This document shows positions 1,669-60,927 of a stretch of 64,000 nucleotides of DNA, one piece after another. Under the pieces are notes generated by a model. The model searched no databases. It was not told the DNA's origin and was given only the letters and a program-made list of their open reading frames with translations. The position numbers were made by a program, and so were the translations under genes. Location: assembly GCA_002898395.1 (NCBI GenBank), contig BEHE01000009.1:15392-79391 (forward strand). The letters are read 5' to 3'. The stretch comes from Candidatus Calditenuaceae archaeon HR02. Lineage in GTDB: Archaea; Thermoproteota; Nitrososphaeria_A; Caldarchaeales; Calditenuaceae. Each line of letters opens with the position of its first letter. Position 1 is the first letter of the stretch.

Positions 1669-1740
1669 TGGGGCCGGTGGGAATCGAACCCACGACCTCC
1701 GCCGTGTGAGGGCGGCGTCATACCGCTAGACCACGGCCCC
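1669..1740 (-). tRNA. tRNA-Val (anticodon CAC), no encoded CCA
   Basis: The reverse complement folds as a cloverleaf: GGGGCCG acceptor stem, anticodon loop CTCACAC, T-arm GGGTTCGATTCCC, discriminator A. Confidence 0.85.
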
Positions 1741-5831: not shown

Positions 5832-5885
5832 CCAGCTGAGGCCCAATCAGAGTTAAATTCCACCAGATGACAGCTGGAGTAGAGT

Positions 5886-7879: not shown

Positions 7880-8129
7880 GCCCAGCAACAAGGATAAACC
7901 CGAGGCCGGCATGTCAAGAAGGTTAACGGACTGGCATTTTCGCCAGTCATGTCTGGAGTTTAAACGGCCGGCCTCTTTTGGGTTTCCTAGATGTTGTTGG
8001 GCTGGTTGTCCGATGGCTAACCCCCCGTCTTTCCATTGTTTAAGTTTTTAATCCTTCACTATGGTTGTCGGATGATATTGAGTGTTTTAAGCCGCTCTCT
8101 CGGCCCCTCTTAGAGAGCCTTCTCGCGAC
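7880..8129. repeat. Intergenic repeat family C, copy 1 (~250 bp), structured, candidate ncRNA or MITE
   Basis: About 85% identical to 31928..32188; reading frame is not conserved between copies; internal hairpin gactggc/gccagtc enclosed by a gaggccgg/ccggcctc helix and an outer cccagcaaca/tgttgttggg pairing. Confidence 0.6.
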
Positions 8130-8351
8130 CTTCTACGAGTCTGTCAAATATCTGCTCCTCCAGCTCGCTCATCCTAGACTTCAGCTGGCCAAGGGCCTCG
8201 TTAAGAAGATTCTCACAGGTCTGTGCCTCGCTTAGTAGAGCGTTCCTCTCGTCTGAGAGCTGGTTGAGCTTCTTCACGGATCGGAGGTCTGGGCACTACT
8301 TATCAACCCCAATAAAGTCCCAGGTAAGATAACCACAAGGCTGGACTTCCT

Positions 8352-10333: not shown

Positions 10334-11430
10334 TAGACCAGATAATCGTCTAAGGGGTAGGAGGTGAGTGGTATGGCAGATTCCTCCGTGACCAAGACTG
10401 TGTCCTCCATTCTGACACCCCACTCACCCATTATATAGATACCCGGCTCACAGGTCACCACGTTATTCTCCATGAACTGGTCTTGACTGCCAGGACCTAT
10501 TCTCGGGGGCTCATGAATATCAATCCCCACGCCGTGGCCTAGGCTGTGTATAAAGTAGGATCCCATCCCCTTGCTGCTTAGTGAGTCACGGGCTATGTCG
10601 TCAACGTAGCTGCATGAGACTCCTGGCCGCATTATGCTTTGAGCCAGCGTCTTGGCGTTTATAACGGATTCGAATGCATTCTGAAGTTTCTCATCCATCT
10701 CTTTTCCGATGTAGAAGGTCCTAGTTATATCGGAGCAGTATCCCTCTACTTTCACACCAAGATCAATGACAACTACATCACCCTTCTTTAGGACCCTATC
10801 TCTAGTCGTTCCTCTTTGGATTGGCCCGTGGGGGAAGGCTGAGCGCTCTCCGAAAGCAACTATCGGCGCGAAGGCGGGCTCTTGGCCCACACGCCTGTAA
10901 ATTTCAGCGGTCAGCTCCGCCTTGACCTCACTCTCCCTAATCCCTGGTACCAAGAGGTCTGAGGCTGCCCTCATGACCTTGTCGGAGATTGAGCAGGCTT
11001 CCCTAATCACCTCCACCTCATATGGATCCTTTGACATTCTCATGTCCCATACGAGCCTTGACTGTGGCCGCAGGTCTATACCTCCTATTAGGGCGCTGAT
11101 CTTCCTATAAGTCTCGATGTCTAGGTTGTCTATTCCGACCATTCCTCCTAACTGGCTGAGAATCTCTGCGAGGAGCGCTTCTGGCGCAGCCCCCATTTTT
11201 AACTGCACTATCTCGATCTCCTGCGAAGCCTCCTTCTCTGCGAGACCGTAGTTCATTGGTGAAACGTAGAGAATTGCTGAGCCATCTTGGCGGATAAGGA
11301 GTGTTGCTGGACCTGGTAGTCCCGTGAAGTAGAAAATGTTTGACTCGTTGATGCATATGTAGGCGTTGAATCCGGAGAGCTCCAGCCGTGCTGCAAACTT
11401 TTCAATCCTGTCCTTATACCTCAACTCCAA
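10330..11430 (-). CDS. M24 family Xaa-Pro aminopeptidase/dipeptidase
   Basis: HGVGIDIHEPP, CEPGIY and MEDTV metal-ligand motifs. Confidence 0.75.
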   Translation of the reverse strand: MELRYKDRIEKFAARLELSGFNAYICINESNIFYFTGLPGPATLLIRQDGSAILYVSPMNYGLAEKEASQEIEIVQLKMGAAPEALLAEILSQLGGMVGIDNLDIETYRKISALIGGIDLRPQSRLVWDMRMSKDPYEVEVIREACSISDKVMRAASDLLVPGIRESEVKAELTAEIYRRVGQEPAFAPIVAFGERSAFPHGPIQRGTTRDRVLKKGDVVVIDLGVKVEGYCSDITRTFYIGKEMDEKLQNAFESVINAKTLAQSIMRPGVSCSYVDDIARDSLSSKGMGSYFIHSLGHGVGIDIHEPPRIGPGSQDQFMENNVVTCEPGIYIMGEWGVRMEDTVLVTEESAIPLTSYPLDDYLVY

Positions 11431-11593
11431 TCTGCTGTCAATCTATCCGCGGACTATATCAATCTTCAACCATTAAAGCAGAATAGAAATTGTCCTGAAG
11501 ACGGTTTGAGGGGTTCTGATGAAGGGAGATTTAAACGGGAGGTAGGCTGGTTTAGCGCTTTTTCCATGTGATACTCGCCCCCGCCCTACATCT

Positions 11594-11740
11594 ATTATCT
11601 TCTTGACTTGTTTCTTAGTTTTGTGTTGCATCGGGGGCATCTAATTTGTTCTGTGTTTATGTATTGTTGGCATTTTGAGGAGTATTTAAATCACCTACCA
11701 TATGCACCACTACTAGCGTCGGGGGTATCGAACTCTCAAC
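11594..11740. repeat. Intergenic repeat family B, copy 1 (~145 bp), contains a TATA-like box (agtatttaaatc)
   Basis: About 85% identical to 31449..31590. Confidence 0.65.
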
Positions 11741-11803
11741 AAAGACGATATGGCATTATAGGGATGAGATAGGAGAAAGGAAGGATTGGTGGAAGATTTG
11801 TGA

Positions 11804-11870
11804 TAGGTTACAGAGAGGTCTAGGCAGGAGAATGAGGCGCAGACGAAAACCCGCCCCCTCCCCTTTATCC
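11804..11870. repeat. Intergenic repeat family A, copy 2
   Basis: Matches 1553..1630. Confidence 0.7.
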
Positions 11871-12099
11871 CCTCTTTTTCCTTTTTCGGATCGGTTTCGC
11901 ACCCGCATTCCATATGAAAGTAAGGTTATTCCCTGGATGCCTCCAAGGCGGGCCGTCAAGCCCCTCCCCACCACTCTTCACGCCCTTCTCCCTCACCTCC
12001 ACGACCTCTCTTATGCTCCCGAGCACCTCAAGCTCGTGCTCCAGCTCCCTAATCTTCTTATCAAGATATTCTCTTAGCTGGCTTATCCATTCTCAACCT

Positions 12100-14424
12100 T
12101 TAGGTTCGCACTACGTCGTGTATCACTATTGTGGTCTTCCCGTCTATCTTGTGTATTGTGGCGAGCGCTTTGAAGACTTTCCCCTTCTTTATTAGGTCTC
12201 TGGGGCCGTTGTATGCTGTTGCGTCGAGCCTCGCCCTAAACCTGTCATCAACCACTACTATCGCGAATCCTGGATAGATCTTCTCGACCATTATCTCGTG
12301 GACTTTCTCGGGGGCCTTGGAAGCCTTCACAGCGGCCTTTGCAACATATCTTTCACCCGACTTGACCACTAGTCCGTCCCTGACTAGCCTGTTCAACGAT
12401 ATCCTGACTATGTCGGGGCTGTGGCTGAGAAGGTCCATGGCATCGGCCATGGATAAGCCCTTAACTCCAGCCTCCAGAAGCCTGTCGTAGAGCTCTCTCC
12501 TACACCTGAGAAGCTCCCCATAGCTGATCTTGGAAGTATCAATAGAGGGTTCGCTCTCCTTGGTCTTCTCTAATTCACCTTCAACCACCACTTCTAGCGC
12601 GTCCCGCCTCCAGGGCCACGGCTCTCCGGGCTTAGGCTCAGGCCCCCTCCTCTCGACCTTGAAGCCGCTCAGCTTCTTCGAGACGTTCTCAAGGATTTTA
12701 GCCATCTTCCTAGCCCTCCTATACCCTTCCCTGAAGTAGTATTCGTCCACTGTTTTCTCCGTGATGAGAATGGTTACTTTCCCAGGTAGTCTCCTACCAG
12801 TCCTTCCCCTTCTCTGTATGTATCTTATCCCTGAGACTGCCGGCTCGTAGAATATAACGTATCCGCACTCAGGTATGTCTAGGCCCTCCTCTCCTATAGA
12901 TGTGGCTACTAGTACTTTGAATTCTCCCCTCCTGAAGGCATCTAGTATCTTCTTCTGCTCCTCCTGGCTCATCCTCGGGCCCATCTTACCCTCACCCTTA
13001 CCTATGAAGAGGTGTGCAGATACTCCTCTAGACCTTAGCCGCTCAACCAGTATCTCGGCCGTGTGCCTAATATTGGCGAATACCATAATCCTGTCACCCG
13101 GCTTCTCCCTTAGGTGCTGGTCGACTAGGGCTAGGAGGGCCTCGACCTTGCTGTGGTCCTCGCTGCACTTCTCAGCCATCCTGACTAGCTCCTGGAATTC
13201 TGGTCTCCTAGAGAGCATCTTGTGGCTCTTCAGCTCCGAGTTTGAGATCTCCCTCAGATACTCCCTCAACGAGTAGGCGTGCTGGCTCTCTATCAACTCC
13301 AAGGCATGGTAGAGGCTCAGGAGCTCAGAGCATAGTGCCACGTAGTGCATGTTCTGGCCCTTAACGCCTGAGTCTATCTCAGCCCTAAGCCTAGCCATGA
13401 GCTGGACTATCACCTTCCTGTTTATGCCCTCTAGCGGAGACCTGAGCAGGCCATATGTCTGTAGTTGCCTAGCCGTAGACTCTATCATCCGCTTTATACG
13501 GCTCCTAATCGCCTCGTATGACTGTGGGAGCCCCAGCTTAACCCACGCAACCTTAACCCCTGGAATATAGCTCGAGACATCCTCATCCTCCTCTGTCCTC
13601 CAGACAATCCTCTCTATCCAGAGGTTCTTGACGACCTCGAGCACTCTCTCCTCCTCGCTCCCCGGACTAGCTGTAAGCCCGAGAATCCTGGGCCACGGGC
13701 ATTTCCTAACGTATTCGGACGCGAGCCTAGTATAGGCGTATCTGCTCCTACTTCTGTGGCACTCGTCGAAGACTAGTAGGGCGAACTCCTCAAGCCTTAT
13801 CCAGCCCCGTCTATAGTCGTTATAGGCTGTCTGGGGTGTTGAGAATACCAGCCTGATAGAGGGGTTCTCCCAGACCATTCTCCTATTGGTGTCCACCACC
13901 TCTCCGGTAACGGCCACGGCCTCGCCCTCCGATATGTTGAGGTGTTTTAGGAAGCTCTGCCTGTGCTGTAGGACTAGCGGCTTGGTTGGAGCCATCATGA
14001 GTATTCTGCATCTAGGATGCCTGTGGAGCAGCTCTGCGGCCACTAGCTCGGCTATGACAGTCTTACCCAGTGCTGTGGGTAGGACTACTAGAGTATTGCC
14101 CTTGAGGGCTCCCCCAACCATCCCCCTCTGATAATCTCGGTCCTCGATCGTCTCGGTCCTAACCATGGGATGAGTTACAAACTGCCTCATCTCCACCCTC
14201 TCAACCTCCTCCGTTGTTCTCTCTTGGACGACTGTTTGGTTGGGCGTCGGGGATGCCAATAGACCCTCAGCAACCTTCACCGCATAGATGTGCTTACAGT
14301 CCCTGCCCTGCTTCTTGGCCCTGTATACGTAGTCAGGGCATGTGCACGTGAATTTTTCCCCGTCAAACGTTACTCTGTAGGTCTTTGAGGGGTCTTCCTG
14401 GCTGGGGACATCCCAGACACGCAT
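12100..14424 (-). CDS. Hef/FANCM-family SF2 helicase with N-terminal SWIM-type zinc finger and C-terminal winged-helix-like region; no ERCC4 nuclease domain
   Basis: N-terminal FTCTCPDY...CKHIYAV (CxCxnCxH); Walker A LPTALGKT; DECH box; LGLTASPG motif III typical of Hef/RIG-I/FANCM. Confidence 0.7.
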   Translation of the reverse strand: MRVWDVPSQEDPSKTYRVTFDGEKFTCTCPDYVYRAKKQGRDCKHIYAVKVAEGLLASPTPNQTVVQERTTEEVERVEMRQFVTHPMVRTETIEDRDYQRGMVGGALKGNTLVVLPTALGKTVIAELVAAELLHRHPRCRILMMAPTKPLVLQHRQSFLKHLNISEGEAVAVTGEVVDTNRRMVWENPSIRLVFSTPQTAYNDYRRGWIRLEEFALLVFDECHRSRSRYAYTRLASEYVRKCPWPRILGLTASPGSEEERVLEVVKNLWIERIVWRTEEDEDVSSYIPGVKVAWVKLGLPQSYEAIRSRIKRMIESTARQLQTYGLLRSPLEGINRKVIVQLMARLRAEIDSGVKGQNMHYVALCSELLSLYHALELIESQHAYSLREYLREISNSELKSHKMLSRRPEFQELVRMAEKCSEDHSKVEALLALVDQHLREKPGDRIMVFANIRHTAEILVERLRSRGVSAHLFIGKGEGKMGPRMSQEEQKKILDAFRRGEFKVLVATSIGEEGLDIPECGYVIFYEPAVSGIRYIQRRGRTGRRLPGKVTILITEKTVDEYYFREGYRRARKMAKILENVSKKLSGFKVERRGPEPKPGEPWPWRRDALEVVVEGELEKTKESEPSIDTSKISYGELLRCRRELYDRLLEAGVKGLSMADAMDLLSHSPDIVRISLNRLVRDGLVVKSGERYVAKAAVKASKAPEKVHEIMVEKIYPGFAIVVVDDRFRARLDATAYNGPRDLIKKGKVFKALATIHKIDGKTTIVIHDVVRT

Positions 14425-49479: not shown

Positions 49480-49702
49480 GTTAAACGAGAAAGACGTCGC
49501 TGTCCCCTCATTGAACATGATCTGGCGGCGAGAAAATACGGCGTATGAAAATTCTGAAGAGCCTTTACGCAGGGCTCAAAATAATATTATGGCTCCCAAG
49601 AATAGAGACCAGCCTAACTTGGAGACATTAATAATACTTCATAACCTGCACCTTAACGTACTTTGGGTCAAAGCTTTTGTATTAGCTCATCTGTAGCTAC
49701 AC

Positions 49703-50026
49703 ATGCCCCAATACGTTATACTACAGAGTCATCCTCTAGGGAATTGTCCGCTCGCAAGCAAGGGTGCAAGAGAATGGTTTAAGAAGACTTTCCCAGAAGT
49801 GGAAAGCGTAGCTAAGAAATTCAGTGTTAAGCTCGTCGTGCCATATATTCATCTCGACCCAGCCCACAAGGGACTTATGTTACTGGAAGCCCCAAGCGCC
49901 GAGGCAGTTAGAGATTTTCTTATGCAGGCAGGTTTCTTCCATTTCGTTGACATGGAGTTCTATCTAGTCACACCAATAGCAGACCTCGTAAAGGACATAG
50001 ACAGGATCCCAACAATATACCCGTAG
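49703..50026 (+). CDS. Hypothetical protein
   Basis: ORF only. Confidence 0.3.
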   Translation: MPQYVILQSHPLGNCPLASKGAREWFKKTFPEVESVAKKFSVKLVVPYIHLDPAHKGLMLLEAPSAEAVRDFLMQAGFFHFVDMEFYLVTPIADLVKDIDRIPTIYP

Positions 50027-50257
50027 AGTGGGTCTGTCATTACCTAATGGGTTTAATGACGATGCGCCTGCTCTTTTTGACGGTTTTGTGGCCGTCTATA
50101 GGAGTTTGTTGATGAGGTTTTATTTGGACTAATTTCCGCCACATTGACGGTGTAACGAGCCTTAATGCCTCTTTAACGATTTTCTAATAAGCGTGGTTAT
50201 CGGGATCCTTAAACAGTATGGGCTGGATGAGCCGGTGCCATCTATAGATGGTCTGAT

Positions 50258-50318
50258 GATGGGTCAGAGCGGGTATCTTCATCACGTCTCAGAAATACCC
50301 GCTATCATCACCCACAGT
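50258..50318 (-). ncRNA. Candidate C/D-box sRNA (C GTGATGA, D' CTGA, C' GTGATGA, D CTGA; 12- and 11-nt guides)
   Basis: Box order and spacing on the minus strand are canonical for archaeal sRNAs; caveat: the two guides are largely self-complementary. Confidence 0.35.
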
Positions 50319-50372
50319 ATAGCCTAAAAATTCGAGAGATAAATGTTGGTGTCTCCCGGCATTTTGGACTGT

Positions 50373-50549
50373 TTAGAAGTCTTCCTTAATTATCGTCTTC
50401 CGGTTGTTTGCCTTGCAGCGCTCTACAGCCTTTTGGATCGCTTGCCTGACAACAGCGTCGAGCCCCTGAAGAGCGTCACTGCTCAGTCGGATACCCTCCG
50501 GCAGCAGCTCCCTAACCTTTGATTCTACAACCACAAACTCCCGTGGCAT
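50373..50549 (-). CDS. Small histone-fold protein (archaeal histone/DUF1931-like), 58 aa; not in the ORF track
   Basis: Translation MPREFVVVESKVRELLPEGIRLSSDALQGLDAVVRQAIQKAVERCKANNRKTIIKEDF; the C-terminal NRKTIIKEDF matches the histone GRKTIKAEDI motif. Confidence 0.5.
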   Translation of the reverse strand: MPREFVVVESKVRELLPEGIRLSSDALQGLDAVVRQAIQKAVERCKANNRKTIIKEDF

Positions 50550-50640
50550 GGTTTCGGTAAAAACTGCTAAAGGATGCTTTTTAGGTTTATCTGGCTTCTC
50601 TGACAGCCATGCAGCGGGTAATACTGGCGTCGTTTCCTAT

Positions 50641-52065
50641 TTATATTGTGGTAGGGAGCTTGGGATGGAGGTTTATAAGGCTTGAACCGGGGGCAACCCG
50701 GCTTAGGACCGGCTGGAATAGCTCCGGGGTCTCGGTATGTATTGGTATTACTCTCTTGGGGCGGGCCATTCGGATAATGTGTGCCAGCTCCTCCCTGCCG
50801 GCGTGTCCAGAGGCGTGGACCTGGATGCTCTTCATACCCAGTATCGAGAGCCAGTTATCTATCCGCTCCCTGTCTATTTCCTGCTCCTCGTTGTGCGGCT
50901 CGCTCGTAGAGTAGATGAATAGGGAGTCTTCGACGGGCCTCATCAGTAGTAGGTCTAAGACGTCGTCCGGCGAGTTAAGGACAATCGTGTACTTGCTTTG
51001 ATAGGCCGCGACATCTAAGTCTGTTAGCACCGGCAAACCCTTGTCCAAGAGCTTCTCCAGGTATTCTCTCTCCCAGCCGTGGTAGTCTTGCCTGTCCAGT
51101 AAACCGCTTCCCTTCCTCTCAACCAGAACCCCTACTTTCCCCTTGCCCGGGAGGAAGTCCTCAGGCATCACCCCAAGGTTCCTAAAGGTGTTGAGCATCA
51201 TGGCCATCCTAGGAGAGATGAGGACCGTTCTCCCCGCCGCCTCGGAGGCAGAGACGATTGAGCTGAAGCGGTCGTAGTCTAGGAGACCAGTAAGCACCGC
51301 TACTAGCCCTCTCCTCTCCATAATGTTGTGGGTAAGACTCTTCTCCACATCTGCCTCGGTCGCCTGTTCCTCTTCACCTATCCGGGTGCCCTCCAACATC
51401 ACTACGTCAACACCTTGAGAAGTGATGGTCTCTGCAAACTCTTCCGTAAATACGCTCTTAGGCCCATGTAGCCTTAGATCACCCGAATACGCCACACTCC
51501 CTTCCGGTGAGTGCACTATAAGGCCGTAGGAGCCTGGAACCGAGTGGTCTACATGTATTGGAACTACCTCGAATGAACCGATCCGAACATTGCTGCCCGT
51601 CCTGAAGAGGCGGACCACCCTATCTTCATCGGTAAATATTTTATCTTCTAGCGTCTTCGCGGGTTTGGTCAGCTCCCTCGTCCTAGCTATCTCGTAGCTC
51701 CCTTCACCGAGATAGATGGGGATGTCCTTTCGCAGCAGTGAGACGTGGCCGATGTGGTCCGTGTGGGGGTGGCTAACCACTATGCCCTGCACGTTTAGTT
51801 CGGGGGCCTTACGAAGGAACTCACTTGTGAGGCCGGTTGGGTCGAAGAGCTCCCTGTCGTAGAGGTTTCGGACTAGGGGGATGGAGCGGGACGCGATTAG
51901 CGAGGCCAGCAGCGAGAACTTTTTGGGCCTCAGAAAGAACCCGAAATAGCGCCTCCTGTATGCATAGCTTATTCCGAAGTCGATGAATAAGCCTTCACTC
52001 CGGGCCTCGATATAGAATTTGTTACCGCCAACCTCGCCCACGCCTCCAAACCCCCACACCCTCAT
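50641..52065 (-). CDS. MBL-fold beta-CASP ribonuclease (archaeal RNase J-like)
   Basis: GGVGEVGGN start; VSHPHTDHIGHV HxHxDH motif; beta-CASP C-terminal motifs. Confidence 0.6.
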   Translation of the reverse strand: MRVWGFGGVGEVGGNKFYIEARSEGLFIDFGISYAYRRRYFGFFLRPKKFSLLASLIASRSIPLVRNLYDRELFDPTGLTSEFLRKAPELNVQGIVVSHPHTDHIGHVSLLRKDIPIYLGEGSYEIARTRELTKPAKTLEDKIFTDEDRVVRLFRTGSNVRIGSFEVVPIHVDHSVPGSYGLIVHSPEGSVAYSGDLRLHGPKSVFTEEFAETITSQGVDVVMLEGTRIGEEEQATEADVEKSLTHNIMERRGLVAVLTGLLDYDRFSSIVSASEAAGRTVLISPRMAMMLNTFRNLGVMPEDFLPGKGKVGVLVERKGSGLLDRQDYHGWEREYLEKLLDKGLPVLTDLDVAAYQSKYTIVLNSPDDVLDLLLMRPVEDSLFIYSTSEPHNEEQEIDRERIDNWLSILGMKSIQVHASGHAGREELAHIIRMARPKRVIPIHTETPELFQPVLSRVAPGSSLINLHPKLPTTI

Positions 52066-52185
52066 GCTCTCGTAATAGCTGGATAAACTGATTTAAAGCT
52101 ACGTCCCCCGAAAATCGCCTATGATTTGGACTCTTGTAGCTAAACAAATCTTTTAAACCTCTTTCATGAAGGTTCAGGTAGAGAA

Positions 52186-54798
52186 ATGCTTGAGACGCTT
52201 TGGATTTGGCGTGACGAGCGTGTCGTAAAAAGGCTCTCGTGGTATCTTGCGGTCTCAACCAACAAGATGCCTGCAAAGTATCTGATATGTCGGAGGATAC
52301 CGGTTGATGTGGATTTTAGCGCCAGCGAAGAGGAGCTCTGGGACGCGAACAGGAGGGCTGCTAAGATTTTCGATCAGATTCACAGGGGCATAAGGAGGGG
52401 CGAGATAGCCCTCGGAGATCTTGAGAAGCCGAAGAAGAGTCTCATGGATTTGAAGGTTGAACTTGTGAACAAGATGCTCAGGCACTGCAACTTCTGCAGG
52501 TGGAACTGTAAGGTAGACAGGCTCCAGGGCCAAAAGAGGGGTACATGCATGCTCGATTGGACATCTCGTGTGAGCAGCTACTTCCACCACCTCGGAGAGG
52601 AGCTCCCTATACGCGGGGTGAGAGGCTCAGGCACAATATTCTTCACGTCATGCAACATGAGGTGTGGTTTTTGCGTTCATCCAGACACCTACGTAATGAC
52701 CGACACGGGGCCTAGGAGGATAGAGGAGTTATTCTTAGAGGCTGAAGGGGCAGTATTGCACGGCGACGGCTACGTAAGGTTTCCAAGGGAGGTATACACC
52801 TACACGTACGACGGTAAAAGGGTTAAGGTATCTAAGGTCTTCAAGCATTTTTACGCCGGTGATCTTATCGTCATCAAGCCTTTCTACGCACCTCCTATAA
52901 ATGTAACGCCAGCTCATGAGCTAGTAGTTTATAGCGAGGAGGAAGGAGGAATAAGGAAAAAGAAGGCTAGCGAACTTAGCATAGGAGATAAGTTGTTGAT
53001 ACCTAGACTGAAGAGGGAAAGCGGCGAAGAAGTCTGTATAGACGTAGGGCGAATTTTGGAGAGCGCTATAGCTGAGCTTAAGTTCTTCGTGAACATTCAG
53101 CCGGAGATGCACGAGCTAGTCGTCAAACTTCACGAATCAGGCCTGACATCTAGCGAGATAGGGGGGAGGACGGGTTACCACCCTGCATACGTTAGAGGCC
53201 TTATAAGTAGGTTAAGAAGGGGCGAGGTAGGAGGCAAGGAGAAAAAGAACTCATTAGTCTTTGAGGACGGTAGAGTGAGATTAAAGACAGAAAAGCGACC
53301 TGGCATACCAGCTAAGTTGAAGCTCGATGAGGAGGTTGCCGAGCTATTAGGATATTATTGCGCTGAGGGCCATGTGAGTAAGTGTAGCGACAGGCCGAGT
53401 AGTTATAAATTAGTGATCAGCTTCGGCAAAAATGAAAGGGATTTAGCCGCTAGAACAAAGACTCTCTTGGAGAAGAAGTTCGACATAAGTGCACGGATAG
53501 TTGAGCGCAAGACGACCATAAGCGTCGAAGTGGGCAAAACTTCGCTGGCCCTTCTCTTCAAATCGTTATGCGGAAGCAATTCATACGATAAGAAAGTACC
53601 TCCCCACCTATTCAAGGCGCCTGATAGCGTGATAGAGTCGTTCACAGAGGCTATTAACGTAGGGGACGGGTGTATAACAGGGGGTTACGTATCCATTAAT
53701 ACGTCGTCGAGGGAGTTGGCGCATGGATTATATGGGCTATATATACTGTTAGGGCACCTCCCGAGCTATAACGTCTATAAACCATCTGCTGAGAAGATCA
53801 TAGAGTCTAGGAGAGTTAAGCAATCTATAATCTACTACGTGAAGGTTAGATTATCTAGGATGCGTGATAAATCTTGGAGAGAAGCTAAACACGTCAGGTA
53901 TAGATTTACAGACGATTACATAATAGTCCCGATACACTCAATATCGAAGAAACGATACACCGGCCCAGTATATAACATGGAGGTGGACGACAAGAGTCAT
54001 ACATACACGGCTAGCTACATAGCTATAGGTAACTGCCAGAACGGGGACATAAGCAGGGATAAGGATAATGGGCTGGTTGTGGACCCTGAACTCCTAGCCA
54101 TGATGATGTGGGAGCTGAGGGTTGAGGGCTGCCATAACATAAACTTGGTGGGCGGCGAGCCGACAATCCACCTACATACAATAGTCGAGGCCATATCCCT
54201 CTTAGGAAGCATCCAGCCTACGCGGGATAAGCTAACCTATCTCTGGATGATGAAGCCCGACGCGCTCAGGTGGCGGAGGCTCGAGCCATCCCAGTACCTC
54301 TACGGCGGAGAGCTAAACACACCCATTCTCTGGAACTCGAACATGTACATGAGTGGCGAGACCCTCGCGATTTTGAGGGAGCTCGTAGACATCTGGCTTC
54401 CAGACTTTAAGTTTGGGAGTAACACCTGCTCCATAAAGCTGGCGAGGACTCCATGGTACTGGGAGACCGTCTCAGCTAATCATAAGACAATCTACGACTG
54501 GGGTGAGGATATAGTGATTAGGCACTTGGTCATGCCCAACCACGTTGAGTGCTGCACCAAGAGGGTTCTCTCTTGGATAGCGGAGAACATGCCTGGCACC
54601 CCAGTCAACGTAATGGACCAATACCATCCCGACTGCTTCGCAGACCCTCTAAGCCCCGAATTCGACCCACGGTACAGCGAGATCGCGCGGAGACCTACGA
54701 AGGAGGAGATACTTGAGGCCTATAGGTATGCGAGGGACCTGGGACTCCCCTTCGAATCCATAAGCCTGGAGAAAAGCGTGTTTGGCTTGCGTCCTTAG
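52186..54798 (+). CDS. PflX-family radical SAM enzyme (COG1313), interrupted by an intein
   Basis: Exteins: ...FFTSCNMRCGF | CQNGDISRD...GGEPTIHL...; the spliced join restores the family signature CNxRCxFCQN; the mature protein would be ~416 aa. Confidence 0.8.
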   Translation: MLETLWIWRDERVVKRLSWYLAVSTNKMPAKYLICRRIPVDVDFSASEEELWDANRRAAKIFDQIHRGIRRGEIALGDLEKPKKSLMDLKVELVNKMLRHCNFCRWNCKVDRLQGQKRGTCMLDWTSRVSSYFHHLGEELPIRGVRGSGTIFFTSCNMRCGFCVHPDTYVMTDTGPRRIEELFLEAEGAVLHGDGYVRFPREVYTYTYDGKRVKVSKVFKHFYAGDLIVIKPFYAPPINVTPAHELVVYSEEEGGIRKKKASELSIGDKLLIPRLKRESGEEVCIDVGRILESAIAELKFFVNIQPEMHELVVKLHESGLTSSEIGGRTGYHPAYVRGLISRLRRGEVGGKEKKNSLVFEDGRVRLKTEKRPGIPAKLKLDEEVAELLGYYCAEGHVSKCSDRPSSYKLVISFGKNERDLAARTKTLLEKKFDISARIVERKTTISVEVGKTSLALLFKSLCGSNSYDKKVPPHLFKAPDSVIESFTEAINVGDGCITGGYVSINTSSRELAHGLYGLYILLGHLPSYNVYKPSAEKIIESRRVKQSIIYYVKVRLSRMRDKSWREAKHVRYRFTDDYIIVPIHSISKKRYTGPVYNMEVDDKSHTYTASYIAIGNCQNGDISRDKDNGLVVDPELLAMMMWELRVEGCHNINLVGGEPTIHLHTIVEAISLLGSIQPTRDKLTYLWMMKPDALRWRRLEPSQYLYGGELNTPILWNSNMYMSGETLAILRELVDIWLPDFKFGSNTCSIKLARTPWYWETVSANHKTIYDWGEDIVIRHLVMPNHVECCTKRVLSWIAENMPGTPVNVMDQYHPDCFADPLSPEFDPRYSEIARRPTKEEILEAYRYARDLGLPFESISLEKSVFGLRP
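52672..54033 (+). mobile_element. Intein (454 aa) with LAGLIDADG homing-endonuclease domain
   Basis: Block A CVHPDTYVMTDTG; block B TPAHELV; LAGLIDADG blocks LLGYYCAEGHVS and INVGDGCITGG; C-terminus ...YIAIGN followed by +1 Cys. Confidence 0.8.
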
Positions 54799-55265
54799 CT
54801 TAGCTTCAGCTTCTTGTCCGACAGTAGTCTGGCTATTCTTGCGAGGACTTTGGAGGAGCTATTCAGCTTTGCCGAGGACATTTTAGGCGCCTTAACCACC
54901 CTGACCTGCCATCCTTCCCTCTTCGCCTCCTCCATGAACTCGCTGCGGATCTTGTCTTGGTCGTAGCCGAAGACCACAGCGTCTGGGCGGAACCTCTTAA
55001 TAACTCTCCTGAAGCTGAATGGCTTATAGCCTAGATGGGCTTCGTCAACGAATTTCAGACTCCTGACTAGGATCAGCCTCTCCTTCTCGCTGAAGATCGG
55101 CGGCCTCTTCTTCCTCCTCTTCACGGTCTCATCCCTCGCGATTATTACTATTAGGCGTCCATTCTTCCCCTTCAGCCTGCCCGCGTATCGGAGTAGGTAT
55201 ATGTGGCCTGGGTGCAGTATGTCGAAGACGCCTGTAGTGAGTATTATCCTAGACCTTCTCACCAA
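54795..55265 (-). CDS. ribL: Cytidylyltransferase-fold protein, probable FAD synthase RibL
   Basis: TGVFDILHPGH (HxGH) and VIIARDETV; ~150 aa. Confidence 0.5.
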   Translation of the reverse strand: MVRRSRIILTTGVFDILHPGHIYLLRYAGRLKGKNGRLIVIIARDETVKRRKKRPPIFSEKERLILVRSLKFVDEAHLGYKPFSFRRVIKRFRPDAVVFGYDQDKIRSEFMEEAKREGWQVRVVKAPKMSSAKLNSSSKVLARIARLLSDKKLKLS

Positions 55266-56290
55266 GTGAACTCGACCTTCCCCAGCGCTCTTAGACAGTC
55301 TAGCAGTCCCTCAGCATAGGATACGGCTATGAGAGAGTCGTCGGCCATATCCGAGTTGAGGAAGAATTTCGCGTCCTCAACGTATGATCTGGCGAGTTCT
55401 AGGACCCTTCGCGTTTCGGCGTCGCCGCTGAGTATTTGGAGTCGAGTGAGGGTGCTACTGGCCTTGGCCACGTATCTCTCGGCCCGAGCCCTACGGTGGC
55501 TTGCTGGCTTATGGGGTTTAAGAAGACCTTCATCGACACGCATCAATTTGTTGATGGCATCCCTCTCATAGGAGCGCAGCTCGGCCGGAATAATAACTAT
55601 GTGTGGTGGAGGTGGGAGGTGGAGGTTTGAGACGTCGGAGGCCCTACACGCAACCCGGACCTCGTCTCTATAGCCCAGCCTAGCCAACACAATGACCGTG
55701 CTATCAGGCCCGAGCCTACCCCCTACCTCGGCCCCCGCGTCGAGCAGCATTCTCACAGCCTCTGATGCGCTGAGCCCACCCCCGGCCACGTCCAAGAGGA
55801 CTAATGTGTGGAGCCCGGCCTCAATGTTCTCCTCTACGCACCTATAGATGGTTTTGAGGCTCTCGCCGCTGGCGTCTCGGGGAACTGTGACTATGCGGCC
55901 AAACTTGTAGGAGGAGAGGCAGGAGGAGCCGATGGCTGCTGAGACGGAGGACACGCCGTAAACTATTTCGCAGCCCACACCCCTGCCTGCCGCCTCCATT
56001 AAGACCGCGATGTGGGTTGTGGCGATAAGCGGGTCCCCCGGGACGGCAACCGCGACACTCATGGTCGCTGCCTTATCCACCAGCTCAGCAACCCTCTCTT
56101 CGAGGTCTGACCTCTCGGCCAATCTCAGCCTTTCCCCCAGCCTCGACCTCAGAAACTCCACTAGCTCACTGGGCAGGGGGCTGGTGTAGGTGTCCAGATA
56201 GACTATGTCCGACTCCTCAAGAGCCTTGATGGCCTTTAGCGTCATGTACTCAGGGGGGCCAAGCCCTAGCCCTACTAGCCTCAGCACCAC
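55259..56290 (-). CDS. dph5: Diphthine synthase (Dph5) with an ~90-aa C-terminal extension
   Basis: LVGLGLG start; GDPLIATTH; homology runs through PPPHIVIIP and then continues ~90 aa beyond the usual end. Confidence 0.7.
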   Translation of the reverse strand: MVLRLVGLGLGPPEYMTLKAIKALEESDIVYLDTYTSPLPSELVEFLRSRLGERLRLAERSDLEERVAELVDKAATMSVAVAVPGDPLIATTHIAVLMEAAGRGVGCEIVYGVSSVSAAIGSSCLSSYKFGRIVTVPRDASGESLKTIYRCVEENIEAGLHTLVLLDVAGGGLSASEAVRMLLDAGAEVGGRLGPDSTVIVLARLGYRDEVRVACRASDVSNLHLPPPPHIVIIPAELRSYERDAINKLMRVDEGLLKPHKPASHRRARAERYVAKASSTLTRLQILSGDAETRRVLELARSYVEDAKFFLNSDMADDSLIAVSYAEGLLDCLRALGKVEFTW

Positions 56291-56358
56291 GAATGCATCT
56301 TATTGGCGAGGTGATAAACACATCTTCTGAAGGATGGATGAAGGACTTATAGGGGTGT

Positions 56359-57429
56359 GTGGAAAGTCTTCCCCCAGGAGGTCGGGTAGTAGGTGGGTTG
56401 AAGGCAGTAGTGCTTGCTGCGGGTGAGGGTAAAAGGCTCGATCCACTAACTAGGAATAGGCCTAAGCCCCTCCTACCGGTCGCAGGTATTCCCTTAATCC
56501 TCAGAACGGTCAGGGCTCTTCAAAGCGCCGGCGTGGGTGAGGCCTGCATAGTTACCAGTCCGGCAGGTGACCGGATAATGGATGCTCTAAAAGGTGTGGA
56601 GGGGCCACGTTTGAGGCGCGGAGTACAGGAGAAGCCGTTGGGGACGGCACACGCGCTCCTCGCTGCCAAGGATTTCGTTGAGGGGGAGGAGAGTTTCCTC
56701 CTAGTTTATGGGGACCTTTTCTTCGAGGCTGGGATGCTCCGGGGGCTAGTGGAGCATGTTGCGAGAGGGTTTGATGGAGGAGTCTTGGCTATCCAGCGGG
56801 AGGATGCGAAGAGGTTCGGCGTGCTGCATGAGGAGGATGGGTTGTTGAAGGGCATAGCTGAAAAGCCCGAAAACATATTCGGTCCAGCCCTGATAAACTC
56901 TGGAATCTACGTACTGCCAGGTGAGATATTCGAGGCGGCTGAAGAGGTTAAACCATCACCTAGAGGTGAATACGAGCTCACAGACGCAATAACTCAACTC
57001 GTGAAGAGGGGGAGGCGGATTGCTGTCTATAGGCATCCTAGTGGATATTGGCTTGACGTGGGGACGCCCGCAAGCTACTTAGAGGCAAACCTGCTGGCGC
57101 TGCAGGAGTTGAGCCCGCAGGCCACCTCAAAGACCCTGCGAGACTCGTACATCGGTGGGGGAGTCAGGTTGGGTGGCCGCGTCGAGGTGAAGTCCTCCGT
57201 CCTGATGGAGGGCGTCGAGGTCGGCGAGAATGTGGCTCTAGATTCCGTGGTGTTGCTTGAGAGAGCGGTCGTCGAGGATGATTCTCGGCTCTCCTACGCT
57301 ATCGTTGGTGAAGGGGGTAGGGCTGGCGTGGGATGCCGGCTCGAGGGTCTCCGCGAAAAGCCGGTAATCGTCTCTCCAGGCGCCACCATTCCACCCTACC
57401 TCACTGCGGAGCCCGGAGACGTGCTTTAG
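56359..57429 (+). CDS. Sugar-1-phosphate nucleotidyltransferase with C-terminal left-handed beta-helix (GlmU/RmlA-like)
   Basis: VVLAAGEGKRLDPLTRNRPKPLLPV N-terminal signature; hexapeptide repeats at the C-terminus. Confidence 0.7.
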   Translation: MESLPPGGRVVGGLKAVVLAAGEGKRLDPLTRNRPKPLLPVAGIPLILRTVRALQSAGVGEACIVTSPAGDRIMDALKGVEGPRLRRGVQEKPLGTAHALLAAKDFVEGEESFLLVYGDLFFEAGMLRGLVEHVARGFDGGVLAIQREDAKRFGVLHEEDGLLKGIAEKPENIFGPALINSGIYVLPGEIFEAAEEVKPSPRGEYELTDAITQLVKRGRRIAVYRHPSGYWLDVGTPASYLEANLLALQELSPQATSKTLRDSYIGGGVRLGGRVEVKSSVLMEGVEVGENVALDSVVLLERAVVEDDSRLSYAIVGEGGRAGVGCRLEGLREKPVIVSPGATIPPYLTAEPGDVL

Positions 57430-58036
57430 CCTCACTCCTTAGCAAGGAGCGCGCAAGCAACCTGGCAATCCTTATTGGCTCTGGGACCCTTCCACTAATA
57501 GTCATCCTATTCAAGACCGCCTCGGCAGACCTCCGAGAGAGCCCGACCCTCCTCACATGGACTGTGTAGCCCGTCTTGAGGACGTATTCCTCTCTCTCCC
57601 CATTGGACTCATAGACTCTGAGCCTCTCCTCCCAATCGCCTGGAAACCTGGACTTTATAACCTCGGAAAGCCCCTCAGAGGGGTTGTATGTTACGCAGAG
57701 GAGTGGAACACTTGTCTCAGACGCAACCTTGCCTAGGTCGACTATGTTAAAGAGGCTTATGATGCAGCCTCCGAGCATGAGGAGGTTGATGTCACTCCTA
57801 TCGAGCTCCCTATACATCTCGATTATGCTGTCCGTCGCATCCATCCCTCCCACAGTGCACCTGCCCACAGCGAACCCGTCGAGGAGAAAGTCCGCCCGCA
57901 TCACCACGCCTGCGAGGAAAGACTTATCGCCTAAAACCGGCCTGAAGCTTTCTGCGACCCCGAAGACCCTGAATCCAGGCTTAAAGGCGGAGAACCCCTT
58001 AATTCTCAAGCCAGCGACAGAGCCACCTCCATCCAA
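57401..58036 (-). CDS. DUF99 (UPF0215) family protein
   Basis: RVFGVAESF...AGVVMRAD...GGMDATD pattern. Confidence 0.45.
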   Translation of the reverse strand: MDGGGSVAGLRIKGFSAFKPGFRVFGVAESFRPVLGDKSFLAGVVMRADFLLDGFAVGRCTVGGMDATDSIIEMYRELDRSDINLLMLGGCIISLFNIVDLGKVASETSVPLLCVTYNPSEGLSEVIKSRFPGDWEERLRVYESNGEREEYVLKTGYTVHVRRVGLSRRSAEAVLNRMTISGRVPEPIRIARLLARSLLRSEAKARLRAPQ

Positions 58037-58998
58037 GCCCTTGCCACATTCTCGGGATTATACCCACCACCACCCATCGCAACGATCCGGCCGCCGCATC
58101 TCTCACCCGCCAGCTTCCTAAGAGCCGTCGCAGCATACCTGTGAGACGCCGGAGAATACTCTAGCCGTGTTAAGGGGTCGTCCTCGATTCCATCGGCCCC
58201 ACATTGCAGAAGAACAAAGTCGAAGTCGTGCTTCTCGAGAAAAGCTAGGCCCTCGTCGAAGGCGTTCTTAAAGTCAGTATCATCCGCACCCGGTGGTAGC
58301 GGAATGTTGAGCTTCTTTCCTTTCCCTGCGCCTCGCCCATCCTCATACCTGAATCCAGTCCCTGGATAAAGCGTCCTGCCATCCTGATGGATGTCGAAGA
58401 AGATGACCCGCGGATCTTCTTCAAACTCATAGTACACTCCATCGCCATGGTGGGCGTCTATGTCAACATAGGCCACGGCCCTAACCTTCTCCCTCTCTAA
58501 GAGATACTTGATGGCTACGGCGGCGTCGTTGAAGACACAGAAGCCCCCAGCTTTGCTGCTCATGGCGTGGTGGAGCCCACCCATAGGGTTGAAACCCCTG
58601 CAATCCTCCCTCAATACGAGCTTCACAAGGCCGAGGGTTGTGCCGACAACATATGATGCGGCTTCGAAGACGCCTGGGAAGGCGGGGGTGTCTCCATAGT
58701 CGAGGTATCCATAGCCCTGCCACGACGCGTACTGAACAAACTTGATATAATCCTCGTCATGGAAGAGCCGGAGCTCCTCTAGGCTAGCCATCACTGGCTT
58801 GAAGACGCTATACTTTAACCCCGACTCGTCCAGGGCCTTGTAGAAGGACTCGAGCCTCACCCGGTTCATCGGATGCGCCCCGCTGAAGCTGTATCTCAGC
58901 AGCTCCTCGCCACGTGCAATATACAGCATACCAAGACAAGCATCGCGCATAGGGGATAAAAACATGTCTCTCTCGCGCTGCGTCAGCAATATAACCAT
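58006..58998 (-). CDS. Histone-deacetylase-superfamily protein (AcuC/AphA-like)
   Basis: DIDAHHGDG and CGADG motifs; true start probably at an internal Met. Confidence 0.7.
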   Translation of the reverse strand: MVILLTQRERDMFLSPMRDACLGMLYIARGEELLRYSFSGAHPMNRVRLESFYKALDESGLKYSVFKPVMASLEELRLFHDEDYIKFVQYASWQGYGYLDYGDTPAFPGVFEAASYVVGTTLGLVKLVLREDCRGFNPMGGLHHAMSSKAGGFCVFNDAAVAIKYLLEREKVRAVAYVDIDAHHGDGVYYEFEEDPRVIFFDIHQDGRTLYPGTGFRYEDGRGAGKGKKLNIPLPPGADDTDFKNAFDEGLAFLEKHDFDFVLLQCGADGIEDDPLTRLEYSPASHRYAATALRKLAGERCGGRIVAMGGGGYNPENVARAWMEVALSLA

Positions 58999-59028
58999 CC
59001 GTGATGCATGAATCTTGTGGTGATTATA

Positions 59029-59874
59029 ATGGAGTATAAACGCCTCGGTAAGACGGATGAGAAGATAGCCGCTATAGGCCTCGGGACCTGGAAGCTAGGT
59101 GGTTCTATGTCGGCGGACTACTCCCACGACCTCGAGGCCATCGAGGTCATCAGGCACGCAGTGGAGCTAGGCATGAACCATATAGATACCGCCGAGATGT
59201 ATGGGGCGGGACACTCTGAAGAACTTGTAGGGAGGGCGATCAAGGTCTTTCCACGCGACGAGGTCTTCATAGCCACGAAGGTCTGGTACACAAATTTACG
59301 CTACGACGACGTGCTACGGGCGTGTGAGAGAAGCCTGAAGAGACTCGGTGTGAAATATGTGGACCTCTACATGGTCCACTGGCCGAACGAGAGGATACCT
59401 CTCTCAGAGACGATGAAGGCGATGGAGAAGCTCTACAAGGACGGGAAGATCAGATACATTGGTGTAAGTAACTTCTCCACGCACCTCGTCGAGGAGGCGC
59501 AGAGCAGTCTCTCAACCACAGACATCGTTGTGAACCAGGTAGAGTATGGTCTTCACGACAGGTCGATAGAGAACGAACTCCTCCCCTACTGTGAGAGGAA
59601 TGGAATAACAGTGACGGCCTACAGCCCCTTGGGGCAGGGCAGAATCGTTATGGAACTCAAGACCAAGACTAGGAGGACCGAAATATTACATGAACTGGCT
59701 GAGCGATATGGGAAGACTCCTATCCAAATCTCCCTCAACTGGGTCATCTGGAGAGAGAATGTCATAACCATACCGAAAGCCTCTAGGAGGGAGCATTTAG
59801 AGGAGAATGCGGGGGCCTGCGGCTGGCGCCTCTCCCCCAAAGACTACGAACTCTTATCGAATGTGTGGAGGTAG
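59029..59874 (+). CDS. Aldo/keto reductase
   Basis: MEYKRLGKTDEKIAAIGLGTW start; AEMYG; HWPN. Confidence 0.8.
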   Translation: MEYKRLGKTDEKIAAIGLGTWKLGGSMSADYSHDLEAIEVIRHAVELGMNHIDTAEMYGAGHSEELVGRAIKVFPRDEVFIATKVWYTNLRYDDVLRACERSLKRLGVKYVDLYMVHWPNERIPLSETMKAMEKLYKDGKIRYIGVSNFSTHLVEEAQSSLSTTDIVVNQVEYGLHDRSIENELLPYCERNGITVTAYSPLGQGRIVMELKTKTRRTEILHELAERYGKTPIQISLNWVIWRENVITIPKASRREHLEENAGACGWRLSPKDYELLSNVWR

Positions 59875-59966
59875 CGTAACTCTCCTTCATAGAGATGTCC
59901 TAGGTGAACTGGGGGAGTTTTCCGCAGAATCTTAATTAATTGGGGGGTCTATATATTATAATCTGG

Positions 59967-60470
59967 ATGAAGCTTGATAAGAGGGATGTCAAGATTTTAA
60001 GCATCCTCCAAGAGGATGGTAGGGCGTCTTACTCCAGCATCGCAAAGCAGCTGAATATAAGTGAGGCTGCAGTATATGCTCGCGTCAACAAGCTTGTAAA
60101 GGAGGGAATAATCAAGGGGTTTACCGCAATACTCGACGAGACTAAGCTCAACCTCGGCATAGGAGCCTTCATAGGCCTAAGGGCGACACCCTCAAAGTAC
60201 GCCGAGGTCCTGAGCCAGCTCGCCAGCTTCCCAGAGGTAACCGAGATACACGATGTCACCGGGGACTACTACGCCATACTTAAGGTCAAGACACGGAACA
60301 AGGAAGAACTCGCAATCCTGCTAGACAAGATCGGCAGGCTCGACGGCGTGGTATCCACCGACACAAAGCTGATACTTAGGACCATTAAGGAGACCACCAA
60401 GCTACCACTCTCGAGGCTCGAAGAGGCCGCTCTGCCTCCGAGACAAGCCCGCGTCAGGGCGAGACAATAA
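59967..60470 (+). CDS. Lrp/AsnC-family transcriptional regulator
   Basis: LDKRDVKILSILQEDGRASYSSIAKQLNISEAAVYARVNKL HTH plus RAM domain; tatatattataat TATA ~15 nt upstream. Confidence 0.85.
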   Translation: MKLDKRDVKILSILQEDGRASYSSIAKQLNISEAAVYARVNKLVKEGIIKGFTAILDETKLNLGIGAFIGLRATPSKYAEVLSQLASFPEVTEIHDVTGDYYAILKVKTRNKEELAILLDKIGRLDGVVSTDTKLILRTIKETTKLPLSRLEEAALPPRQARVRARQ

Positions 60471-60531
60471 CTGTTGGAGGCGGCTCACAAATATATACTG
60501 ACACCGAGTAGAATCTCTAGGATAGGAAGGG

Positions 60532-60927
60532 ATGGTCAGGGAATACACCTACCGCGGCTACACGCTACAACAGCTACTCGAGATGCCGACAGACCAGCTA
60601 ATCAACCTCCTCCCAAGCCGCCAGAGAAGAAGTCTCAGGCGCGGACTCACAGAGGCCCAGCGTAAACTTCTAATAAAAATAAGAAAATACAAGCAAAACA
60701 ACATTAACAAACCTGTTAGAACACACGCAAGAGACATGATCATCCTTCCAGAGATGGTTGGCCTCACAATCTGGGTACACAACGGCAAAGAATTCACACC
60801 CGTAGAAATCCAACCCGAAATGATAGGCCACAGACTCGGCGAATTCGCAATCACAAACAAACGAGTACAACACGGCAGACCCGGCGTCGGAGCGACGAAA
60901 AGTAGTATGTATGTCCCGTTGAAGTGA
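60532..60927 (+). CDS. rps19: 30S ribosomal protein S19 (uS19)
   Basis: [60 protein letters not shown] matches uS19. Confidence 0.85.

Follow-up and report, generated by a model that had tools for sequence, protein, structure and literature searches.

A gene for a radical S-adenosylmethionine (SAM) enzyme of Candidatus Calditenuaceae archaeon HR02, an uncultured thermophile of the Nitrososphaerota, is interrupted, directly before the third cysteine of its CxxxCxxC motif, by a segment that we interpret as a mobile intein carrying a LAGLIDADG homing endonuclease. The gene lies in a stretch of 64,000 nucleotides, referred to here as the window (assembly GCA_002898395.1, contig BEHE01000009.1, positions 15,392 to 79,391 of the forward strand). 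The precursor open reading frame (ORF) occupies 52186..54798 on the plus strand and encodes 870 amino acids plus a stop codon. The intein comprises precursor residues 163-616 (nucleotides 52672..54033, 454 residues), starts with CVHPDTY, and ends with YIAIGN. This insert of 1,362 bp is in frame, sits between CNMRCGF and CQNGDIS, and leaves the frame of 870 codons unbroken. Its removal from the precursor gives a 416-residue protein reading ...GSGTIFFTSCNMRCGF/CQNGDISRDKDNG...NLVGGEPT, with the junction TSCNMRCGF/CQNGDIS (the slash marks the splice junction here and below). The GC content at the window locus is 0.461 in the intein versus 0.516 and 0.541 in the exteins. The segment 52672..54033 is a genuine class 1 intein that is most likely, by prediction, able to splice, and we put the probability of a genuine and, by prediction, active mobile intein at roughly 0.88.

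We consider the comparison with intein-free alleles to be the decisive evidence for an intein. A search with the spliced extein sequence returned the homologs P0001, P0002, and P0003, which are exactly 416 residues long, are 90, 85, and 84% identical over 100% of the length, and align to the spliced sequence with no gap across the junction. In L001, the contig that encodes P0001, the gene is uninterrupted and specifies a protein of 416 residues, 90% identical to the host protein. The gene order and strands are common to L001 and the window for an MBL-fold RNase, the radical SAM gene, a cytidylyltransferase, and a diphthine-synthase-like methylase. In the DNA alignment, window positions 50263-52674 correspond to L001 positions 4079-6489 and window positions 54033-60803 to L001 positions 6486-13249, both at ~88% identity. 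The 1,362 bp between these blocks have no counterpart in L001, and the alignment breaks exactly at the intein borders, with the 3-nt TGC common to the Cys1 and Cys+1 codons as the sole ambiguity. The empty-site DNA of L001 reads TGCAATATGCGGTGCGGCTTC/TGCCAGAACGGTGACATAAGC.

A sequence-only reading of this DNA had recognised a PflX-like radical SAM enzyme whose CxxxCxxC motif is split by a LAGLIDADG intein just ahead of the third Cys. The ORF, residue range, sequence strings, and junction that it gave are all correct to the residue, and its interpretation agrees with the profiles, the empty-site allele, and the fold. The gapless alignment of the 416-residue homologs over the junction is the outcome that it had anticipated for the joined exteins. 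It had also considered that the insert might be a native domain of the family, which is contradicted by the 84-90% identical homologs without the insert.

The large size of the insert, and nothing else, would fit a native lineage-specific domain or an assembly chimera. Both readings are refuted by the 90% identical syntenic empty site, by the canonical intein blocks and fold, and by the recurrence of this insertion in numerous separate assemblies, among them JANVYR010000002.1 with a copy of 87% identity. The probability that the segment is something other than an intein is therefore practically negligible.

Intein anatomy and the Gly-Asn terminus

The features of the locus are listed below by window coordinates and strand.

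52151..52158 (+): TATA-like element TTTTAAAC, ~30 nt 5' of the ATG, read from sequence
52186..54798 (+): precursor ORF; its N-terminus MLETLWIWRDE is the same in the intein-free homologs P0001-P0003
52186..52671 (+): N-extein, residues 1-162; gapless against the 416-residue intein-free homologs, DNA collinear with L001 to 52671-52674
52486..52548 (+): host Cys motif C101-x2-C104-x3-C108...C121, from Cys conservation among homologs
52651..52671 (+): first two cluster ligands, C156-N-M-R-C160-G-F; C160 is at position -3 from the intein Cys1
52672..54033 (+): intein, class 1, with LAGLIDADG homing endonuclease; from the empty-site allele, profiles, model, and dN/dS
52672..52734 (+): splicing block A (CVHPDTYVMTDTGPRRIEELF) with the nucleophile Cys1, precursor C163; TIGR01445 match over intein residues 1-86
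52885..52926 (+): splicing block B (YAPPINVTPAHELV) with T79 and H82 (TxxH), from the family alignment
53101..53217 (+): helical, helix-turn-helix (HTH)-like region between the splicing and endonuclease domains, from helices of the AlphaFold model and a weak match to Pfam HTH_29
53314..53871 (+): LAGLIDADG homing endonuclease domain, intein residues ~215-400, Pfam PF14528
53335..53379 (+): LAGLIDADG motif 1 (VAELLGYYCAEGHVS) with catalytic E232, from the family alignment
53635..53679 (+): LAGLIDADG motif 2 (ESFTEAINVGDGCIT) with catalytic D332, from the family alignment
53956..54033 (+): splicing blocks F and G (YTGPVYNMEVDDKSHTYTASYIAIGN) with N435, H443, penultimate G453, and terminal N454, from the family alignment
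54034..54036 (+): Cys+1 codon, precursor C617; splicing nucleophile and, once spliced, predicted third [4Fe-4S] ligand
54034..54795 (+): C-extein, residues 617-870; Radical_SAM Pfam match over 617-796, DNA collinear with L001 from 54033
54151..54165 (+): GGEPT SAM-binding motif within the C-extein

Sequence profiles recognize both parts of the element. Pfam LAGLIDADG_3 (PF14528) matches the 454-residue insert with E 3e-10, NCBIfam TIGR01445 (intein_Nterm) scores 38.4 bits against a cutoff of 24.5, and Pfam Intein_splicing reaches 34.7 bits, slightly below its cutoff of 35.8; such profile matches had been named as a check in the sequence-only reading. Residue conservation was assessed in an alignment of 74 relatives with both junctions. 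Cys1, T79, H82, N435, H443, and N454 are invariant in all 74, and Cys occupies position +1 in 194 of 196 related proteins. The element thus combines the characters of a class 1 intein, namely an N-terminal nucleophile, the TxxH of block B, a terminal Asn followed by Cys+1, a HINT fold, and the existence of intein-less alleles. The two LAGLIDADG helices, LLGYYCAEG (E232) and INVGDG (D332), each end in an acidic catalytic residue. The relatives carry Glu at the first position in 64/74 and Asp at the second in 69/74, and both acids are kept in 63 of 67 full-length relatives and are present in the window intein.

The AlphaFold model of the intein, computed with the family alignment, has a pLDDT of 93.7 and a pTM of 0.88. 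Foldseek ranks the TliVMA intein (7qsu, E 6.6e-24) as the best match of this model, followed by PI-PkoII (2cw7), PI-PfuI (1dq3), and PI-SceI, while I-DmoI matches the endonuclease half and the RadA mini-intein (4e2t) the splicing half. A sequence search of the PDB concurs, with PI-PkoII 2cw7 and the VMA inteins 7qsu/7qss matching the endonuclease region at E ~1e-11. In the secondary structure assigned by DSSP, the alpha-beta-beta-alpha-beta-beta-alpha pattern occurs twice over intein residues 220-393, as in monomeric LAGLIDADG endonucleases with two motifs. Between the two domains, the model contains three helices (intein residues ~144-182) with a conserved TS..GYHPAYVR motif, which match Pfam HTH_29 weakly (E 0.078). 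This HTH-like module probably provides an extra DNA-binding surface. Purifying selection acts on all intein segments: between the window and L003, the locus with the nearest relative of this intein, dN/dS is 0.06-0.13 across segments, 0.12 overall, and 0.13 in the endonuclease domain.

The intein ends in Gly-Asn. The sequence-only reading had called the penultimate Gly uncommon, which holds among inteins generally, as functional inteins with a residue other than His at this position (G:6) make up ~5% and His may even impair some of them (PMC4031507). It does not hold within the clade, where the residue is Gly in 35, Ala in 23, Ser in 14, Lys in one, and His in one of the 74 relatives (G/A/S in 72/74). 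From this alignment, Gly453 would be a clade trait and no defect of the window copy. N435 aligns with the block-F Asp of PI-PkoII (VYNMEV versus VYDLSV); the residue at this position, F:4, is usually Asp, then Cys or Trp (PMC4031507). Both the G:6 His and the F:4 Asp normally aid Asn cyclisation and C-terminal cleavage (PMC4031507). The combination of N435 with a small G:6 residue looks like coupled variation of two cyclisation-assisting residues. We note that a canonical His-Asn end is frequent in more distant relatives in B12-binding radical SAM proteins, NifU, and other hosts.

These residues could mean that the intein is dead, i.e., that Gly at G:6 and Asn in block F abolish splicing and turn this copy of the radical SAM gene into an effective pseudogene. 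The normal role of His and Asp in C-terminal cleavage and the ClpP intein of Chlamydomonas, which has an unusual penultimate residue and is helped by reverting it to His (PMC4031507), would fit such a loss. However, G/A/S at G:6 and the block-F Asn are kept in 74 members whose hosts are under purifying selection, and a whole dead clade is implausible. The 870-codon frame is intact, the exteins keep all invariant residues with a dN/dS of 0.10, the intein itself has a dN/dS of 0.12, and functional inteins without the G:6 His exist. We therefore think it very unlikely that the intein is dead and retain the interpretation of a splicing-competent element.

The host enzyme and a junction with four cysteines

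Removal of the intein makes the radical SAM motif contiguous as CNMRCGFC, and on the spliced sequence the score of Pfam Radical_SAM (PF04055) rises to 52.3 bits and that of Fer4_12 to 31 bits. No NCBIfam model scores above its cutoff on the spliced host, and no solved structure matches the host by sequence at E<=1. The AlphaFold model of the 90% identical P0001 (pLDDT 88.5) places the junction in the loop after beta-1 (strand 148-153), the loop that binds the cluster. Foldseek of this model, which has the partial TIM barrel of the superfamily, returns the PFL-activating enzyme 3c8f as the best match (E 5e-9, TM 0.73), followed by viperin, QueE, and MoaA. Homologs of 64-66% identity are named by JGI 'uncharacterized Fe-S radical SAM superfamily protein PflX' and also 'putative PFL activating enzyme'. 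'PflX/COG1313' is a plausible label for the host, based on these source-given names and the PFL-activase-like fold.

The window host belongs to a 416-residue archaeal subtype with an extra N-terminal Cys-rich region. C101, C104, C108, and C121 (Cx2Cx3C...C), upstream of the radical SAM core, are invariant in 36 archaeal homologs and probably form an auxiliary Fe-S cluster or a zinc/metal site. A comparable CxxCPRxC...GxC string occurs in the consensus of bacterial PflX-like hosts. The exteins retain all family-invariant residues, and the extein dN/dS of 0.10 is that against L001.

The conserved residues suggest the following route to the active enzyme. After translation of the 870-residue precursor and folding of the intein, an N-S acyl shift at F162-C163 would give a thioester between Cys1 and F162. 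Cys+1 (C617) would attack this thioester by trans-thioesterification and form a branched intermediate. N616 (intein N454) would then cyclise and free the intein, and an S-N shift would yield the 416-residue enzyme with CNMRCGFCQN, whose CxxxCxxC site could take the SAM-cleaving cluster. The ligated product would carry the junction peptide ...CNMRCGFCQNGDISR (...SCNMRCGFCQNGDISR). Once free, the 454-residue intein would be expected to cleave the conserved motif-coding DNA of alleles that lack it and to be copied in during repair, i.e., to home. Two gains would come with this site: the target sequence is highly conserved, and a Cys+1 nucleophile is always in place.

The junction holds four thiols, Cys-7, Cys-3, Cys1, and Cys+1, and C160-G-F-C163 puts a Cys at -3. 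As the sequence-only reading had noticed, Cys1 stands in for the third ligand in the linear sequence, and the Cys+1 is predicted to be restored as that ligand on splicing, since deletion of the intein gives CNMRCGF/CQN. The precursor itself still spells CxxxCxxC, using the intein Cys1, and Cys1 and Cys+1 have to be near each other once the intein is folded. The sequence-only reading had stated flatly that the precursor is unable to bind the cluster, which is plausible. By analogy with the Pyrococcus abyssi MoaA intein, for which such sensitivity has been reported, it is also plausible that splicing at the four-Cys junction would respond to oxidation or metals.

This arrangement raises the idea that the element is kept as a regulatory intein, through redox or Fe-S/metal gating, which would be compatible with the explanation as a selfish element. 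Gating could proceed through a Cys-3/Cys1 or Cys1/Cys+1 disulfide, or through a metal or cluster on the CxxxCxxC made with Cys1, and the oxygen-labile enzyme would stay an inactive precursor until reducing conditions. The cysteines at -7, -3, 1, and +1, with Cys-3 found throughout the family, fit this idea, as does the report that a native Cys-3/Cys1 disulfide controls the P. abyssi MoaA intein (PMC3922620; PMC10663303). Divalent cations and active-site disulfides modulate splicing (PMC4031507), and mini-inteins that lack the endonuclease persist at the site, as they might if something besides homing favoured their retention. On the other hand, close relatives of the host thrive intein-free (P0001-P0003 and P0007), the distribution is sporadic and, as is typical of selfish elements, does not follow the host tree, and Cys-3 belongs to the host motif and needs no special explanation. 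We consider a regulatory role, taken as a whole, rather unlikely.

The TATA-like TTTTAAAC may be an archaeal promoter that gives a short-leader transcript. The radical SAM gene and the convergent cytidylyltransferase-like gene (54795..55265, minus strand) share 4 nt at their 3' ends, 54795..54798, and L001 has this 4-nt convergent overlap as well (7248-7251). A further ~780 bp of the window (49481..50262) have a low GC content (0.43-0.46) and no counterpart in the otherwise collinear L001. They are flanked by an F420H2-quinone-reductase-like gene and the gene of the MBL-fold RNase and hold an ORF of 107 residues (49703..50026, plus strand) with no Pfam match; this stretch may be another small insertion. 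The sole tRNA in the window is a tRNA-Val (CAC) at 1669..1740 on the minus strand.

A shared insertion site and the probable mobility of the element

A search with the intein only found 91 proteins (E<=1e-5), nearly all of them radical SAM hosts from archaea and bacteria. An exhaustive HMMER search of 1.84 billion representatives gave 55 clusters (50% identity) below 1e-30 and 832 below 1e-10. We set the intein boundaries in related proteins with a family hidden Markov model (HMM). CxxxCxx immediately precedes the intein in 132/142 of the proteins with a defined N-junction, and CxxxxCxx does so in another two. The hosts span at least three subfamilies: PflX-like, AmmeMemoRadiSam, and B12-binding radical SAM proteins. 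The AmmeMemoRadiSam model TIGR04337 is above its cutoff in 15 of 28 representatives (e.g., P0157 at 367 bits), and the B12-binding hosts are of the HpnJ/BchE type (e.g., P0255, junction GCPYRCAF/C).

Scanning species-representative genomes with an alignment of four inteins identified 22 loci, all in metagenome-assembled genomes (MAGs), of which 20 match the whole intein or most of it. These 20 belong to Candidatus Calditenuis, other Nitrososphaerota, Heimdallarchaeota, Thermoplasmata, Micrarchaeota, and Aenigmatarchaeota, and on the bacterial side to Chloroflexota/Thermoflexus, Acidobacteriota, Bipolaricaulia, and Planctomycetota (Gemmataceae). The ten MAG junctions that were inspected are all at the same CxxxCxx/C site. 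The reconstituted target DNA, TGYAAY...TGY...TTY/TGYCARAAC, is conserved across phyla. The conserved target and the assured Cys+1 nucleophile may explain why the whole clade is found at the same position in several radical SAM subfamilies of archaea and bacteria. Within the window, the family HMM matches the radical SAM ORF alone, and no second copy of the intein was found.

Other PflX homologs carry shorter forms at exactly this site, namely mini-inteins of 186-229 residues and a degenerate form of 298 residues (P0031, P0038, P0041, P0052, P0210, and P0005). Mini-inteins are present in about 20 of the best 120 extein homolog clusters. With 60% identity to the full-length P0212 intein, the P0038 mini-intein is a deletion derivative. 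Together, these shorter forms round off the view of a homing cycle. With the P0255 intein as the query, the next-nearest inteins were found to reside in NifU/IscU-like proteins (P0356, P0358, P0359, P0361, and P0362), SufB (P0370), IspG (P0373), and a CoA-enzyme activase (P0368). The C-junction in the NifU-like scaffolds, ...HN/CGDxM, lies right before the conserved cluster-ligand Cys. These relatives hint that the intein lineage is more broadly tied to Fe-S ligand sites.

The histories of intein and host differ. Identities to the window are as follows.

P0001/L001: extein 90%, no intein
L006: extein 89%, intein 52%
L003 (Candidatus Calditenuis fumarioli MAG): extein 71%, intein 87%

Hosts that are 84-93% identical to the window host are thus either without an intein (P0001-P0003) or have one of 52% identity (L006), and the nearest relative of the intein, at 87%, is in the more distant host of L003. 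Nucleotide identity between the window and L003 is 65% over the N-extein, rises to 86% along the whole intein, and falls to 72% over the C-extein. L004 and P0122, both from the Calditenuis host clade, share 97% identity in their exteins and 57% in their inteins. This incongruence between intein and host indicates homing. In P0122, both LAGLIDADG catalytic acids are replaced (E to V and D to A), and this copy appears to be a decaying endonuclease within a still-intact splicing domain. The GC content of the intein is 5-10 points under that of its own exteins in five of six genomes (L003-L008 and the window), e.g., 0.52 versus 0.62-0.63 in L003. The intein GC tracks that of the host, which suggests partial amelioration after transfer.

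L003-like sites are enriched close to both junctions, as would be expected from co-conversion during homing, and we regard this as suggestive only: at sites that differ between L001 and L003, the window agrees with L003 in 9/21 within ~130 nt of one junction versus 18/109 elsewhere (p 0.015) and in 9/25 within ~130 nt of the other versus 21/168 (p 0.006), with proximity bins that were chosen post hoc. Several observations weigh against a genuine and active mobile intein. The inteins of the window and L003 differ by a dS of 0.57, from which the transfer is not recent. Gly at G:6 and Asn in block F, in place of residues that normally help cyclisation, could make splicing slow or conditional. The exact 870-residue product is absent from the protein collection by exact lookup, which leaves this allele without an independent assembly. 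Present-day homing activity is predicted from the retained motifs, as are splicing and endonuclease activity from sequence and model.

Spread by viruses is without support. Seven viral contigs (L025-L031, IMG/VR, 75-407 kb) hold LAGLIDADG inteins that are distant (22-29% identical) and reside in unrelated genes outside the radical SAM family. An example of a viral intein junction is ...DFKPDIV/CVPPGT...VHN/CSIRDWW.

A broader reading of these data would be that of a clade that homes to the motif at the third Cys of CxxxCxxC and jumps between non-orthologous radical SAM genes (PflX-like, AmmeMemoRadiSam, B12-dependent, Tes, and perhaps MoaA) and between archaea and bacteria. Splicing would be gated by redox state or by competition with Fe-S/metal binding, maturation of the enzyme would require reducing conditions and a full supply of clusters, and the invariant block-F Asn and small G:6 residue would be adaptations to the four-Cys junction. 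We offer this combined reading as speculation that is probably incorrect in its full form.

Relation to known inteins

Taken by itself, the locus is a textbook intein and chiefly an annotation issue, as gene callers and family models see an 870-residue 'radical SAM/LAGLIDADG' protein and not a 416-residue enzyme with a mobile element. The pattern across the clade, with its clear incongruence between host and intein among hot-spring Nitrososphaerota, is more useful. It provides a natural system for studying how homing endonucleases exploit active-site-coding DNA that is common to paralogs. Conditional protein splicing could also make practical use of thermostable inteins whose Cys-rich junction is potentially redox-switchable.

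In the literature searched, we found no paper that connects inteins to PflX, to AmmeMemoRadiSam, or to the CxxxCxxC signature itself, none on an intein in tetraether lipid synthase, and no relevant one on inteins and 4Fe-4S; among papers on inteins and radical SAM enzymes, none concerns the CxxxCxxC site. The main text of the intein survey by Novikova (2016) does not mention radical SAM. The sequence-only reading had regarded PflX as an unrecognised intein host. This stands for the literature, where no paper naming PflX was found, and not for the databases, which hold ~90 such proteins, some annotated by JGI as 'PflX/intein/homing endonuclease'. The novelty is further reduced by the Tes intein of NF045703 at the same mapped point and by the published P. 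abyssi MoaA intein. A LAGLIDADG intein in a radical SAM enzyme with a Cys-3/Cys1 pair is therefore already known from these two cases. The clade pattern, i.e., one site in several subfamilies of both prokaryotic domains, the odd catalytic make-up, and the relatives in NifU, SufB, and IspG, appears to be undescribed. The window intein shares its site, size, HTH-like module, block-F Asn, and small G:6 residue with the wider family of radical-SAM-hosted inteins.

In overall architecture, the window intein resembles PI-PkoII (2cw7), TliVMA/PhoVMA (7qsu/7qss/7qst), PI-PfuI (1dq3), and PI-SceI (1vde), which also combine a HINT splicing domain with a LAGLIDADG endonuclease (Foldseek E 6.6e-24 to 1e-10). 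It differs from them in its host, as theirs are DNA polymerase, V-ATPase, and ribonucleotide reductase, and the identity in structural alignments is 11-19%. Inteins of the PI-PkoII type normally have a penultimate His and a block-F Asp, whereas the window clade has G/A/S and Asn (consensus of PMC4031507 and the PI-PkoII alignment).

The best NCBIfam match of the intein is the Tes intein model NF045703 (an 'exception' model), with 67 bits for the intein alone and 77 bits with the junctions. The alignments of the window protein, P0128, and P0157 to this model put intein residue 1 at profile position 156, just after the residues aligned with CxxxCxx, and the intein end near profile position 610; these model coordinates imply the same site and the same size of ~455 residues. 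The window protein is not Tes, as it belongs to a different radical SAM subfamily and its score is far under the cutoff of 1700 bits. None of nine scanned matches of ~1,000 residues is Tes, and the inteins found with the P0255 intein query include no Tes or MoaA host.

The closest functional parallel is the P. abyssi MoaA intein, which a native Cys-3/Cys1 disulfide is reported to hold inactive under oxidising conditions (Callahan et al. 2011, as reviewed in PMC3922620 and PMC10663303). The two have in common an oxygen-labile radical SAM host and an N-extein Cys at -3 that is able to pair with Cys1 (C160/C163 in the window). They differ in the host, which is PflX-like in the window, and the redox control has been reported for MoaA. 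The MoaA intein was compared by description only, and its Cys-3 would also fit the C-terminal CxxC motif of MoaA. With this one published case so far, the window and its relatives offer a natural system for redox or cluster gating of splicing at an Fe-S ligand site.

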